A stretch of DNA of 27,562 nt, from contig JBBIJY010000032.1 of the NCBI GenBank assembly GCA_037445735.1, forward strand, positions 1-27,562. Reading direction: 5' to 3'. The DNA is from Armatimonadota bacterium (GTDB lineage: Bacteria; Armatimonadota; Fimbriimonadia; Fimbriimonadales; GBS-DC). The position numbers were made by a program, and so were the translations under genes. The notes under the pieces were generated by a model. It saw nothing but the letters and a program-made list of their open reading frames with translations. It made no database searches and was not told the origin of the DNA. This document shows positions 9,910 to 13,671 of the stretch, in pieces; position 1 is the stretch's first letter, and each line of letters starts with the position of its first letter.

Positions 9910-11136
9910 TTAGACGATCGCCTGCTCCAGCTCGGCGTAAGGAGGTTGCGGCTGAATGGCGCTGAGCGGGAACTGGAGCGGGCGGCGCAGCTGGGCGAAC
10001 AGCCGGGCATATGCCTGCCCGACCGCCTGCCAGCTCATGCCTGCCGCCTTGCGCTGCGCCACCGCCTGATGATAGCGCATCAGGTACGGGTCGGACAGCA
10101 GCTGAATCGCCGCGTCCGCGATGGAGGTGGGATCCTTGAACTGCACCAGCAGCCCGCCCCCATCGCCCAGCACCTCCTGCGCGTAGAGATAGGGCGTCGA
10201 GATAATCACGCAGCCCGATGCCAGCGCGTACGCCAGCGTGCCGCTGGTGATCTGGTCGGGATTGTGATAGGGCGTGATATACAGATCGGTCGCCCGCAGA
10301 TAGAGCCGAATCTCGTCCAGTGTCAGGTAGCGATTGACGAACTGCACATGGTTGTCCAGACGCAAGCGCTTCACTTCCGATTCGAGCATCTGGCGATACT
10401 GCTCCCCTTCACGGGCGCGCACTTTGGGATGGGTCTCGCCCAGCACCAGATAGAGCGCGTTCGGGAACTGCTTGACGATGGCGGGCATCGCCCGAATCAC
10501 ATCTTCGATCCCCTTGCCGGGGTTCACCAGTCCGAAGGTGCTCAACACGATGCGCCCGCTGAGATTGAGTTGCGCCTTTGCCTGTTGCGGGCTGATCGGC
10601 AGCGGTTGGGGCGCCCCGTGCGGAATCACATACACATGATGCACGGGCACATCGTACACCGTGCGCAGCAGATGCACCGCCGTGCGCGCCATCACCACCA
10701 CCGCGTCCGAGTGAATAATGACCTTGCGCAGCAGGTCGCGCATGAGGTCGGTCGGGCGCGGCACGACGGTGTGCAGCGTGGTCACCAGCGGCACTTCCAG
10801 CCGACGCACGAACGGAATGATATATTCGCCCATCTCCCCGCCGAAGATGCCATATTCGTGTTGCAGGCTGACCACCTGCACAGCGGAGCGGTTGAGCAGT
10901 TCGGCGGCTTCCACATAGTCGCCGATCCGCTCGCGCCGAATCTGATAGATGACACGCGGGTCGGGATGCTCCGTTCGCTCCTCATGGTCTGCCGAGATGA
11001 CCCGTCCGCTCCAGCCCTGTTGTTCCACCGCCTGCAACAGGTCGGCTGTGAAGGTTGCCAGCCCGCACTCCGTGGGCGGGTAGGTGCTCACAAACGCGAC
11101 CTGCGGTCGGATGTCCATAGCCTTGTCCCTCATCAT
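9910..11136 (-). CDS. Glycosyltransferase family 4 (mannosyltransferase-like)
   Basis: STYPPTECGLATF, QHEYGIFGG, TTLHTV, IPHG, KGIE and SGTLAYA. SD GGAGGTGA at 11143-11150. Confidence 0.92.
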   Translation of the reverse strand: MMRDKAMDIRPQVAFVSTYPPTECGLATFTADLLQAVEQQGWSGRVISADHEERTEHPDPRVIYQIRRERIGDYVEAAELLNRSAVQVVSLQHEYGIFGGEMGEYIIPFVRRLEVPLVTTLHTVVPRPTDLMRDLLRKVIIHSDAVVVMARTAVHLLRTVYDVPVHHVYVIPHGAPQPLPISPQQAKAQLNLSGRIVLSTFGLVNPGKGIEDVIRAMPAIVKQFPNALYLVLGETHPKVRAREGEQYRQMLESEVKRLRLDNHVQFVNRYLTLDEIRLYLRATDLYITPYHNPDQITSGTLAYALASGCVIISTPYLYAQEVLGDGGGLLVQFKDPTSIADAAIQLLSDPYLMRYHQAVAQRKAAGMSWQAVGQAYARLFAQLRRPLQFPLSAIQPQPPYAELEQAIV

Positions 11137-11385
11137 TCAACTTCACCTCCAGAACACAGTAGATAGCTGTGTCAGTGTCTTACAGACACTTCCAGACTGT
11201 GGCAGTTTGGAGCGCACAAGCAGACCATTTCAACCGACAGCTACCGTGCCACCCGATAGCCGTCCAGCACAGAGCCGTTCGGGTTTGACCCGAATGCTCC
11301 GCTGCAATCGGGAGCGTGACGCGCTTCTCTATGGGTGGCATCCATGCCTGGTGCAGATGGGGTTTCCTGTATCCTCTCCAGCAAC
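11137..11385 (-). promoter_or_regulatory. Long structured 5' leader, candidate cis-regulatory RNA switch
   Basis: At least six stems, some mutually exclusive, between the promoter and the SD (see findings). Confidence 0.55.
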
Positions 11386-11391
11386 ACTTTA

Positions 11392-11421
11392 AGCATACCC
11401 CATACAGGACAGGAAAATCAA
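11392..11421 (-). promoter_or_regulatory. Sigma70-type promoter of the glycosyltransferase
   Basis: TTGATT (11416-11421), 18-bp spacer, then TATGCT preceded by GG (11392-11399). Confidence 0.65.
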
Positions 11422-11474
11422 GTCCTTTCGGTGAATATATACCCCCTTTGCCAGGCGGATGGTTCCCCGCGGCG

Positions 11475-11493
11475 GTGCTTGTGCGACAAGCAC
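11475..11493. terminator. Hairpin downstream of dnaA
   Basis: GTGCTTGT-GCG-ACAAGCAC. There is no U-tract in the dnaA direction, so the role is uncertain. Confidence 0.35.
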
Positions 11494-11529
11494 AGTCGGT
11501 TTTATTATCGGCAGGGGCAGGTGATTTCT

Positions 11530-12939
11530 TCAGGGGCAGTTGTGCAGGCGGCGGCGGATCGCCTCGATTCGGGCGCGCAGATGGGGGTCGCGGGGCAGGC
11601 GGCGGCTCACCTGCTGATAGGCGTGCAGGATGGTGGTGTGGTCGTTGCGTCCGAACGCCTGGGCGATTCGCGCCCACGGCTCGCCTGTCAGGTCACGCGC
11701 GGCATACATCGCAATCTGGCGAATGGGCACAATATCGCCACGCCGACTGCGACCCGTCAGCTCCTGCGGCTCGATGCCGAACTCCTGACAGACGGCTTCC
11801 AGCACGCGCTGAACGCTCACCGGCTGCGGTCTGGCGTCCACGAAGAAGGTGCGCAGCACCTCCGCCGCCAGCTCCAGGCTGAGCGGCTCGCGGTGGAGCG
11901 AGCTGTGCGCGATCAGGCGGGTGAGCGCGCCCTCCAGCGCCCGCACATTCGATTGAACCTTGTCAGCGATAAACTCGGCAATCTCCAGCGGCAGGGCGAC
12001 GCCCTCCCGCTCCGCTCGGGCAAGCAGGATCGCCACCCGCAGCTCGAAATCGGGCGGGGCAATATCGGCGCACAAGCCCTGCTCGAAGCGCGAGCGCAAC
12101 CGCTCTTCGAGACCGAGCAGCTCGCGCGGCGGCTTATCGCTGGTGAGCACCATCGGGCGCGCGGTGGCAAACAGCGCGTTGAAGATATGGAAAAACTCTT
12201 CCTGCGTGCGGTCGCGCCCCGCAAGGAACTGCACATCGTCCACCAGCCACAGATGCACGCTACGGTGGCGCTCGCGGAACTCGTCCGCCTGACCCTGCCG
12301 AACGGCCTGCACATAGTGGCGCAGGAACTCCTCCCCGCTGATATAAAGCACCCGCGCCTGCGGGAACCGCTGTAAAAATGCCTGCCCGATCGCGTGCAGC
12401 AGGTGCGTCTTGCCCAGCCCTGGCAGGCTATAGAGAAAAAGCGGATTGTAGCGTTTGCCGGGCGAATCGACCACCGCCTGCGCCGCGCCGTACGCCAGCC
12501 GATTGCTGCGCCCCACCACGAAAGTTTCAAAAGTGTAGTCCCGATTGAATCGGGGCGGCGGCAGGGGCGGCGCCGCAGCGGGCGTATCCAGTGGCAGCAC
12601 CACCGCCTGCTCCAGCGGTGCCGACTCCGCCAGCTGCTCCTCACCAACCAGCTCGATGCGCACGGGGAAGCCCAGCTGCTGACCGAGCAGGCTTTCAATC
12701 TCGTGGCGCAGGCGATGATAAATCCACTGGCGCCCGAAGGTGTTATCCAGTCGCAGGCGCAGGCGGTCGCCCTCCAGCTCCACTGGCTCGACCGCTTCCA
12801 GATAGCGCCGACTGCTGATGGCGACCTGTGGGAGCAACGCCTGCAGTGCATTGCGCCATGCCCGCCGCAACTGCACCTGCGCCTCGCTCTCTCCGAAACG
12901 CAACTGCTCCAGCTCGCTCTCTTCCCTGCGCCGCGTCAT
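11530..12939 (-). CDS. dnaA: Chromosomal replication initiator DnaA (divergent)
   Basis: YTFETFVVG.SN, YNPLFLY..GLGKTHL, DDVQFL, QEEFFH.FN, RLRSRF, NVRALEGAL, RQIAMY and DHTT. The start at 12939 is preferred over 13095. Confidence 0.93.
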   Translation of the reverse strand: MTRRREESELEQLRFGESEAQVQLRRAWRNALQALLPQVAISSRRYLEAVEPVELEGDRLRLRLDNTFGRQWIYHRLRHEIESLLGQQLGFPVRIELVGEEQLAESAPLEQAVVLPLDTPAAAPPLPPPRFNRDYTFETFVVGRSNRLAYGAAQAVVDSPGKRYNPLFLYSLPGLGKTHLLHAIGQAFLQRFPQARVLYISGEEFLRHYVQAVRQGQADEFRERHRSVHLWLVDDVQFLAGRDRTQEEFFHIFNALFATARPMVLTSDKPPRELLGLEERLRSRFEQGLCADIAPPDFELRVAILLARAEREGVALPLEIAEFIADKVQSNVRALEGALTRLIAHSSLHREPLSLELAAEVLRTFFVDARPQPVSVQRVLEAVCQEFGIEPQELTGRSRRGDIVPIRQIAMYAARDLTGEPWARIAQAFGRNDHTTILHAYQQVSRRLPRDPHLRARIEAIRRRLHNCP

Positions 12940-13245
12940 TCCGATTGCATCCCTGCCTCTGTGAGTGGGGTCGTTACAGGGTGCGGAAGCACGCCCCCTG
13001 CAGAGCCATATAATAGCATGCACCCCTGCCGACTCCTGCCTTGAGCCGCCCAAGAAAATGAGCCGATAACAGCCGATGAACGCTTTCATCAGCACTTGAG
13101 AAGATTTTTCCCTTTTTTCTGGCTTTCTCCGTACTTATTCGCGCTTTTCCTCGCTTTTTTCTACCTGTTGTGGAGACTTTCTCGCAGACTACAAGATTTG
13201 GCAAGGGGGCGTCGTTCTGCTCCCAGCGGCGGGTATAATAGGCGC

Positions 13246-13671
13246 GTGCGGTTGCCGATTGAGCTGGTGGAGCGGTGTCTGGAGCTGATGGAGCGCCATC
13301 AGCTACAGGAGCTGAGCGTGGAGATGGGCGATATGAGCGTGCATCTGGAGCGTGCGACGCCCGCGCCTGCGCCCGCCACCGCCATCGTGACACCCGCGCC
13401 CGTTAGAGAGATTACCGAACAGCCCAACTTCATCCCCATCGAGGCGCCGATGACGGGCATGTTCTATCGCGGTCCCTCGCCGAACGAGCCGCCCTATGTG
13501 GAAGAGGGCGACCTCGTTCACGAGGGTCAAACAATCGGGCTGATTGAGGCGATGAAGGTGTTCAACGAAATCCCATCGCCCGCCACAGGCGTCGTGCGCC
13601 GAATCGTGGCGCAGAACGCCTCGCTGGTTCAGCAGGGCGAGATTCTGATGCTGCTGGAGCCGCCCGAATAA
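13246..13671 (+). CDS. accB: Acetyl-CoA carboxylase biotin carboxyl carrier protein
   Basis: APMTGMFY, the EAMKV biotinylation motif and a Pro/Ala linker. The GTG start lies 6 nt after TATAAT. Confidence 0.94.
   Translation: MRLPIELVERCLELMERHQLQELSVEMGDMSVHLERATPAPAPATAIVTPAPVREITEQPNFIPIEAPMTGMFYRGPSPNEPPYVEEGDLVHEGQTIGLIEAMKVFNEIPSPATGVVRRIVAQNASLVQQGEILMLLEPPE

Follow-up and report, generated by a model that had tools for sequence, protein, structure and literature searches.

A conserved structured leader RNA with mutually exclusive helices upstream of a GT4 glycosyltransferase gene in one Fimbriimonadales family

We analysed the 5' leader of a GT4 glycosyltransferase (GT) gene in a contig of an Armatimonadota bacterium of the order Fimbriimonadales (GenBank assembly GCA_037445735.1, contig JBBIJY010000032.1); the whole stretch of 27,562 nt is called the window below. 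The element lies on the minus strand in the 393-nt gap between dnaA (11530-13095) and the GT gene, and it is a conserved structured cis-regulatory RNA of one Fimbriimonadales family, present in one copy per genome and uncatalogued. That it is a genuine conserved structured leader we regard as very probable. A short pivot segment, GGUGGCA, has two conserved sets of pairing partners that exclude each other, and the leader probably tunes the amount of enzyme made. A structured cis-regulatory leader with a pivot switch, for which the protein CsrA is the likeliest effector, is the best explanation as a whole, and one that we hold with somewhat better than even confidence.

Two conserved folds of the leader

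A first-pass annotation, made from the letters of the window alone, had proposed a strand-exchange cascade in 11137-11385 that controls translation initiation, and all helices and complementarities that it described are present on the minus strand (Table 1). Stem A, consisting of 8 bp and 4 bp that flank one bulged C, encloses two further hairpins, and hairpin B, with its two G-U pairs, carries the pivot in its loop. Stem A and hairpin B cannot coexist because both use the nucleotides CUAUCGGGUGGCA, and the connecting loops of 1-3 nt would on geometric grounds be too short for a pseudoknot that held both. The annotation had overlooked a better-conserved partner of the pivot, UGCCAC, and the sigma-28-type promoter described below; the pairing with UGCCAC forms stem A', and stems A and A' share GUGGCA outright.

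Orthologous leaders were collected, which gave 42 distinct sequences of 184-383 nt after the removal of duplicates and of one N-containing sequence. They form five clades: g1 (9 leaders, including that of the window), g5 (5), g4 (2), g3 (23) and gX (3). Thirteen g1 and g5 leaders were aligned with MAFFT; the leader of genome G003 (locus L005) was excluded for a large insertion, about 120 nt between hairpin B and the UGCCAC segment, and this genome also has extra sequence between its two promoter motifs. Covariation was found for stem A, hairpin B, stem A' and hairpin T. Every cell was paired in hairpin T (7 pairs, three of them changed on both sides) and in stem A' (6 pairs, one changed, occurring as AU 9, GC 2 and GU 2). 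Hairpin B was paired in 86.8% of cells, with eight of its 10 pairs changed on both sides, and stem A in 91.5%, with one of 9; inside stem A, inner stem C (6 pairs, 85% paired) and the inner hairpin (5 pairs, 80% paired) each had two pairs changed on both sides. For the whole structure with hairpin B and stem A', 92.7% of cells were paired compared to 82.2% in shuffles. The observed pairing was reached by 0 of 500 shuffles in both of the counts made on these leaders, and sliding the partner left only 29-56% paired. In g5, stem A' is extended to 12 bp with an additional compensatory change, and UGCCAC is kept inside an otherwise unalignable stretch.

Stem A was then followed across four clades in a set of 36 leaders (33 distinct) trimmed from the hairpin P2 to the 3' arm of stem A, leaving out three short g3 leaders and the three gX leaders. 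In this set 93.3% of cells were paired, compared to 81.8% in shuffles (0/500) and 15-44% with slid partners, where the trim ends anchor the register and their choice relied on the analyst's own reading of the stem A arm. Four of the nine pairs had changed on both sides, for example as AU 14, UA 9 and UG 5 at one pair and as GC 17 and CG 14 at another, and the aligned 3' arm gave the best duplex with the 11 nt that follow P2 in 33 of the 42 leaders. Stem A is rich in G-U pairs, with GU 16 at one position and GU 12 at another, which assigns the RNA to the strand of the GT gene. The compensatory and G-U changes keep the pairing valid on the minus strand only, as the first-pass annotation had claimed for hairpin B. 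At the level of these alignments it is confirmed that the structure exceeds chance and sits on the minus strand. Since two incompatible folds are both conserved in g1 and g5, a conformational switch is supported.

Folding energy by itself settles neither the reality of the structure nor its strand. The minimum-energy fold of 11137-11385 on the minus strand includes stem A, and its energy of -94.7 kcal/mol was a modest gain only over shuffled controls (z -1.93; 5 of 200 shuffles folded as well). The opposite strand folded better against its shuffles (z -3.50, 0/200), so the strand cannot be assigned from palindromic DNA content alone. Together with the location directly downstream of dnaA and a degenerate DnaA-box-like site, TTATCGGCA, at 11505-11513, the score of the plus strand might point to an element acting as DNA, such as oriC, a DnaA-box cluster or transcription-factor palindromes. 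However, 11137-11529 contains a single two-mismatch DnaA site, the window as a whole has 40 such matches where 30.5 are expected, and the DnaA-like site coincides with the -10 element of the sigma-28-type promoter. It is also the GT gene, not dnaA, that the leader accompanies: GT is found downstream of dnaA in eight of nine related genomes with aligned loci, and GT and leader are located elsewhere in the ninth (G001, where GT is on another contig) and in the whole genus g3. With G-U and compensatory changes that mark an RNA on the GT strand, a DNA-level element is very improbable and largely refuted.

The same substitutions bear on a leader peptide, in which translation of an upstream open reading frame (ORF) would control the downstream gene. 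ORFs can be drawn in the leader, for example at 11241-11396 (51 aa), and the P2 hairpin of g1 and g5 contains an AUG. However, the drawn ORF begins within the -10 element, most g3 leaders, with GGCAAGGAAGCC as P2, lack the AUG, and indels are not multiples of three, even in the 93%-identical relative (258 compared to 259 nt). The substitutions keep base pairs, not codons, and a leader peptide is scarcely credible.

A single-copy leader of one family

No family in Rfam 15 (4227 models) corresponds to the leader. At gathering thresholds the whole window gave two tRNAs only, and a search of 10900-11700 with E values up to 10 gave three matches of 11.8-15.2 bits, compared to gathering scores of 34-66, none of which was on the leader strand inside the element. 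This negative scan bears out the first-pass statement that no known riboswitch class is recognisable. When a profile of the leader was run with nhmmer on its own 2.78-Mb genome, only this locus was found (E 3.6e-28; next E 1.8), and a repeat or mobile element was ruled out, the region being single-copy. A covariance model of the module from P2 to stem A (R1, 102 positions) matched once, and only once, in 22 of the 29 genomes of family f1, this genome included. Families f2, f4 and f5 (24 genomes) gave no match, and the 98 genomes of family f3 gave two marginal ones (E 0.006-0.0095). In the 19 genomes with comparable coordinates the match is directly upstream of GT on the same strand. A full-text search found no relevant literature that pairs the names Armatimonadota or Fimbriimonas with riboswitch or CsrA.

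The genus g6 (G008, L226), with a GT that is 64% identical, has a shorter and different leader, about 150 nt upstream, in which only a hairpin similar to T (UAUUCU-AAG-AAAUA) is kept, beside the Shine-Dalgarno sequence (SD), which suggests that no part of the leader is older than hairpin T. More distant GT orthologues from other Armatimonadota classes (52-56% identity; L057-L061, L149 and L151) have a conserved promoter of another kind, CUUGCAAAA...UGGUAUAAU, and their leader, about 150 nt long, ends in a hairpin, CUCAUUAC/GUAAUGAG, enclosing the SD and the start codon. These leaders resemble the element in preceding an orthologous GT4 gene behind a conserved promoter and in hiding the ribosome site. 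In contrast to it, they have this single hairpin and neither P2, stem A, hairpin B nor hairpin T, and the leader profile did not match them.

A metabolite riboswitch would explain several of these features: stem A would close an aptamer, and a ligand, perhaps an amino sugar or nucleotide sugar akin to the substrate of the enzyme, would stabilise it against hairpin B and stem A'. As in known riboswitches and the orphan candidates in Rfam, a long leader precedes a single biosynthetic gene, a P1-like stem closes a multi-hairpin domain, and mutually exclusive conserved helices share one strand near the SD, with no known family matching. A ligand of this kind would also suit the glmS gene that follows GT within 22 nt in a subclade of g3, as well as the weak resemblance of the enzyme to GT4 enzymes that transfer N-acetylglucosamine (GlcNAc). 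However, in the interior of stem A, where the pocket is expected, the clades have different helices and sequences; a GGGUY-RAA-CCC hairpin within it covaries. Unlike in riboswitches, the junction within the closing stem is not conserved between clades. The invariant nucleotides are outside stem A, in GGAGAGG, ACCCC and P2; there is no terminator; and the element is restricted to one bacterial family and one gene. We consider a riboswitch rather unlikely, and metabolite sensing no likelier than a protein effector.

Tandem promoters upstream of the leader

The sigma-70-type promoter (-35 TTGATT, -10 TATGCT) is conserved as TTGAC(T/A) and TATnnT, with a spacer of 18 nt in nine of nine aligned leaders; the spacer sequence itself varies, and GGG is conserved directly 5' of the -10 element. 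A regular expression for this promoter matched at 17 of 17 genome loci with a GT identity of at least 71%, at 30 of 30 metagenome loci with at least 68% and at none of eight more distant loci. At all 47 orthologous loci fetched it is 184-383 nt before the start codon. From this promoter, transcription is predicted to start near 11385, which matches the 5' limit set by the first-pass annotation, and a long leader that shares its transcript with the GT4 gene is supported. The predicted length of the leader is about 250 nt from this promoter and about 360 nt from the sigma-28-type promoter upstream of it.

The sigma-28-type motif, of the form TAAAGAAT-N12-TGCCGATAAT, overlaps the dnaA stop codon in the window. 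It was found by regular expression upstream of 36 of the 42 leaders, with near-variants visible in the other six, it is 32-157 nt upstream of the sigma-70-type -35 element, and it accompanies GT even where dnaA is not the neighbour. The -10 element GCCGATAA and the -35 element TAAAG have the form that PMC12784957 gives for the sigma-28 consensus and for P. aeruginosa fliC. The motif also precedes genes for flagellin (contig C18), FliM (PF02154, E 2.5e-49) and rod proteins (PF00460, PF06429) in this genome, which suggests from the shared motif that the GT4 enzyme belongs to the flagellar regulon. The locus differs from the sigma-28 (FliA) promoters treated there in that 15 nt separate TAAAG from GCCGATAA, compared to 14 nt in the fliC promoter quoted (PMC12784957), and in the second promoter, of sigma-70 type, 32-157 nt downstream. 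A 301-aa group-3-like sigma factor with regions 2, 3 and 4 is encoded on contig C25.

Just past the dnaA stop codon and the -10 element of the sigma-28-type promoter there is a hairpin, GUGCUUGU-CGC-ACAAGCAC, with an analogue in genus g5. The hairpin at 11475-11493 resembles an intrinsic terminator on the plus strand only (tail TCGGTTTTAT), and there is no U tract on the strand of dnaA and GT.

A CsrA-like site and the flagellar context

The gene csrA (PF02599 above the cut-off) is present in 40 of 41 related genomes, and in this genome (C1:12055-12210) it adjoins fliW and a flgL-like gene. The loop of P2 contains GGA in 36 of the 42 leaders, as GGC-A(A/U/G)GGA(U/A)-GCC. A second GGA is in the SD (GGGAGG or UGGAGG) of 39 of the 42, while the three gX leaders have GUGAGG or GCGAGG, as read by eye from the alignment. 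According to PMC6692469, CsrA follows an AnGGA-in-a-loop rule, its E. coli consensus from in-vitro selection (SELEX) is RUACARGGAUGU with the core CARGGAUG, and a FliW-CsrA partner switch governs flagellar leaders such as B. subtilis hag and C. jejuni flaA. The P2 loop presents CAAGGAUG, which is the core of the SELEX consensus.

With CsrA-repressed flagellar leaders the element shares the presence of csrA and fliW in the genome, a flagellar-type promoter, the AnGGA loop (CAAGGAUG) and the second GGA in the SD. It differs from them in that the GT leader is far longer and has covarying helices that a simple two-site operator would not need, that the target is a glycosyltransferase and not flagellin, and that 6 of 42 leaders lack GGA in the loop. 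The E. coli pgaA leader has several CsrA sites. CsrA is a possible effector here, proposed only tentatively.

In the second flagellin gene of this genome (G000:C7:68760-68945) the leader, of about 115 nt, starts with GGAGAGGAUAC, like the GT leader, and contains AAUCCCCU and the SD GGGAGGAUGA. The purine-rich block at the 5' end of the GT leader, GGAGAGGAUA, was considered as a signal shared with a flagellin leader and was rejected as evidence because the genome has 14 copies of it, several of these within a repeat family. A repeat, GGGGAGAGGG...CCCTCTCCCC...GGGGGAGAGGATACGGGTGAGGGGGC, is present on several contigs of this genome (C2:9904, C8:100722, C25:7993, C46:7270).

Proposed coupling of the switch to the ribosome-binding site

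The first-pass cascade continued downstream from hairpin B: when stem A forms, the freed 3' arm of hairpin B would pair with ACAGCUAUC and so open the hairpin next to the SD. This pairing is strong only in this genome (-13.5 kcal/mol, 0/300 shuffles) and in the 93%-identical relative; 11 of the 12 other g1 and g5 leaders miss the 0.05 level against shuffles, and the twelfth passes with a different partner. The SD-adjacent hairpin that was to be opened is absent from the other relatives. Of the strand-exchange cascade, the conserved and mutually exclusive stem A and hairpin B stand, but the downstream half and the link to the SD are unsupported. The complementarity of CUCCA to the SD is there, but CUCCA equally matches the UGGAG at the 5' end of the leader, which the annotation had missed, and its register varies among the g1 relatives. 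The conserved ACCCC may act as an anti-SD and may also be paired by GGGGUA of the -10 region in the longer transcript; both sides of its pairing with the SD hardly vary, and one compensatory case was seen (L144).

Stem A was forced or blocked in constrained partition functions of all 42 leaders, and this gave no consistent change in the exposure of the SD, which was predicted to be about 0.2 unpaired in most leaders in either case. Between the long transcript, from the sigma-28-type promoter, and the short one, from the sigma-70-type promoter, the mean predicted exposure of the SD was 0.35 compared to 0.30; in 17 of the 42 leaders the long form exceeded the short one by more than 0.05, and in 3 it was lower, a weak difference among sequences that are not independent.

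The locus and its features

The coordinates of the features are collected in Table 1. The dnaA gene encodes the domains Bac_DnaA and Bac_DnaA_C and is not followed by dnaN, and the window shows no cluster of DnaA boxes. Upstream of dnaA there is a T-rich stretch at about 13100-13170 and then a divergent ORF (13096-13671 region), whose translation contains EAMKVFNE, which we take to resemble a biotin carboxyl carrier motif. Two tRNA genes (RF00005, 72 and 59.8 bits) are at 122-286 of the window on the minus strand. For the function of the GT, searches returned generic GT4 names and distant PDB relatives, and the NCBIfam resemblance to the GlcNAc-transferring GT4 enzymes MshA and BshA was sub-threshold, all of it far under the cut-off. 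In the g3 subclade mentioned above (L055:3746-5614; L133, L136, L139-L143, L217, L218 and L221), the gene that follows GT by 22 nt or less encodes a GATase and two SIS domains (glmS), and the leader probably heads a GT-glmS operon there. This arrangement was found at 11 of 91 loci searched, many of them too short to tell; the glmS gene of this genome is elsewhere, on contig C13.

Table 1. Features of the GT4 leader and its surroundings in the window; coordinates are positions of the window and all features are on the minus strand
Feature	Position	Strand	Sequence or form	Remarks
GT4 glycosyltransferase gene	9910..11136	-		408 aa
GT4 mRNA 5' leader	11137..11391	-		start near 11385 predicted from promoter
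SD and start codon	11134..11150	-	GGAGGUGA (11150-11143), AUG (11136-11134)	
SD-adjacent hairpin	11154..11172	-	ACACAG/CUGUGU, containing ACAGCUAUC (11170-11162)	-5.3 kcal/mol; this genome and closest relative only
Hairpin T	11174..11190	-	AGUGUCU-GUA-AGACACU	-6.7 kcal/mol; most widely conserved hairpin
Hairpin 11211-11191	11191..11211	-		-6.4 kcal/mol
3' arm of stem A'	11199..11204	-	UGCCAC	pairs with GUGGCA (11252-11247)
CUCCA segment	11208..11212	-	CUCCA	candidate pairing with leader 5' UGGAG and with SD
Hairpin B	11236..11264	-		11 bp, two G-U; -16.7 kcal/mol alone; pivot in loop; excludes stem A
Stem A, 3' arm	11247..11259	-	CUAUCGGGUGGCA	pivot GGUGGCA at 11253-11247
Two hairpins inside stem A	11278..11315	-		11315-11296 (-7.0 kcal/mol), 11294-11278 (-8.2 kcal/mol)
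Stem A, 5' arm	11329..11340	-	UGCCACCCAUAG	
P2 hairpin	11337..11348	-	GGCA-UGGA-UGCC	family consensus GGC-AAGGAU-GCC; resembles CsrA site (AnGGA in loop)
Conserved ACCCC	11359..11363	-	ACCCC	inverted repeat; possible anti-SD (GG(A)GGU) or partner of GGGGUA
5' purine-rich block	11370..11379	-	GGAGAGGAUA	conserved in g1, g3, g4 and gX, not in g5
Sigma-70-type promoter	11392..11421	-	-35 TTGATT (11421-11416), -10 TATGCT (11397-11392)	18-nt spacer
Hairpin after dnaA stop codon	11470..11498	-	GUGCUUGU-CGC-ACAAGCAC	inverted repeat
Sigma-28-type promoter	11505..11532	-	TGAAGAAATCACCTGCCCCTGCCGATAA (-35 TGAA, -10 GCCGATAA)	overlaps dnaA stop codon

Discussion

We propose that the pivot GGUGGCA would pair either upstream with UGCC(A/G)CC, beside the invariant hairpin P2, forming stem A and closing a multi-hairpin domain, or downstream with UGCCAC while lying in the loop of hairpin B. 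Together with ACCCC and pyrimidine-rich anti-SD segments, this switch would set the initiation of GT translation. CsrA, as part of the FliW-CsrA checkpoint, would bind the GGC-AAGGAU-GCC hairpin and the GGA in the SD. P2 and stem A share UGCC, which is the 3' arm of the one and the outer part of the other, and a protein that clamps P2 would therefore favour hairpin B and stem A'. The parts of this proposal differ in strength: that the leader works by switching between the stem A state and the state with hairpin B and stem A' has about an even chance, and that it acts on translation falls a little short of that.

Several observations weigh against this explanation. The covariation counts reflect a handful of independent events and not dozens, since the sequences are kin; there are roughly one to three independent compensatory events per helix, which is few, and shuffle controls overstate significance among related sequences. 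The three short g3 leaders and the three gX leaders have no clear stem A. For P2 no covariation was found in the 33 sequences, and its fourth pair is unpaired in 17 of the 33, yet that column covaries with stem A; a search by eye found no pairing partner for the P2 loop. A P2 loop with GGU or AGU in place of GGA, as in 6 of the 42 leaders, is unusual for a strict CsrA site, and the flagellin leader on contig C18 shows no GGA by eye. On the side of transcription, the start site is a promoter prediction, the second flagellin gene (contig C7) has no sigma-28 motif in the 170 nt read, and the FliA orthologue is insecure, with a best TIGR02479 score of 108 bits compared to the cut-off of 189.6.

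The switch itself meets two further difficulties. Hairpin B and stem A' are found in clades g1 and g5 only (14 leaders), with a possible analogue in g4, and the largest clade, g3 (23 leaders), has stem A and hairpin T with no clear alternative partner; nor did forcing or blocking stem A change the predicted exposure of the SD in a consistent way. These points would suit a structured leader without an effector-driven switch, which might serve folding or stability, be a target of RNase or Rho or respond to temperature, and in which the alternative helices would be intermediates. The SD is predicted to be mostly paired in whichever state is imposed, and the simpler leader of the distant orthologues, enclosing SD and AUG, suggests a conserved general translational damping of the gene. 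However, the compensatory changes that keep both folds in g1 and g5, and the conservation of UGCCAC within an unalignable stretch, argue against such a leader, to which we give limited probability.

The pivot switch can be extended to a more specific scheme, which is quite unlikely to hold in full: FliW-CsrA, acting on the CAAGGAUG hairpin, would flip the pivot to hairpin B and stem A' and so close the ribosome site, and the tandem promoters would give two RNA isoforms that differ in translatability. Only the sigma-28 transcript would carry GGGGUA, from the sigma-70-type -10 region, which would be able to sequester the conserved ACCCC anti-SD. If this were true, regulation would follow a new design, in which a promoter element is reused as an anti-anti-SD and a protein drives the strand exchange, and a glycosyltransferase, possibly a flagellin-modifying enzyme of GlcNAc type, would be tied to flagellar assembly.

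The Armatimonadota are almost unstudied in gene regulation. The 42 sequences and the working covariance model are ready for an RNA family database and for the bench, and placement in the flagellar regulon would be a lead to the function of an otherwise anonymous GT4 enzyme. The flagellar-type promoter of the gene, in genomes with csrA and fliW, suggests that in deep-branching phyla the reach of the CsrA checkpoint may extend beyond flagellin.

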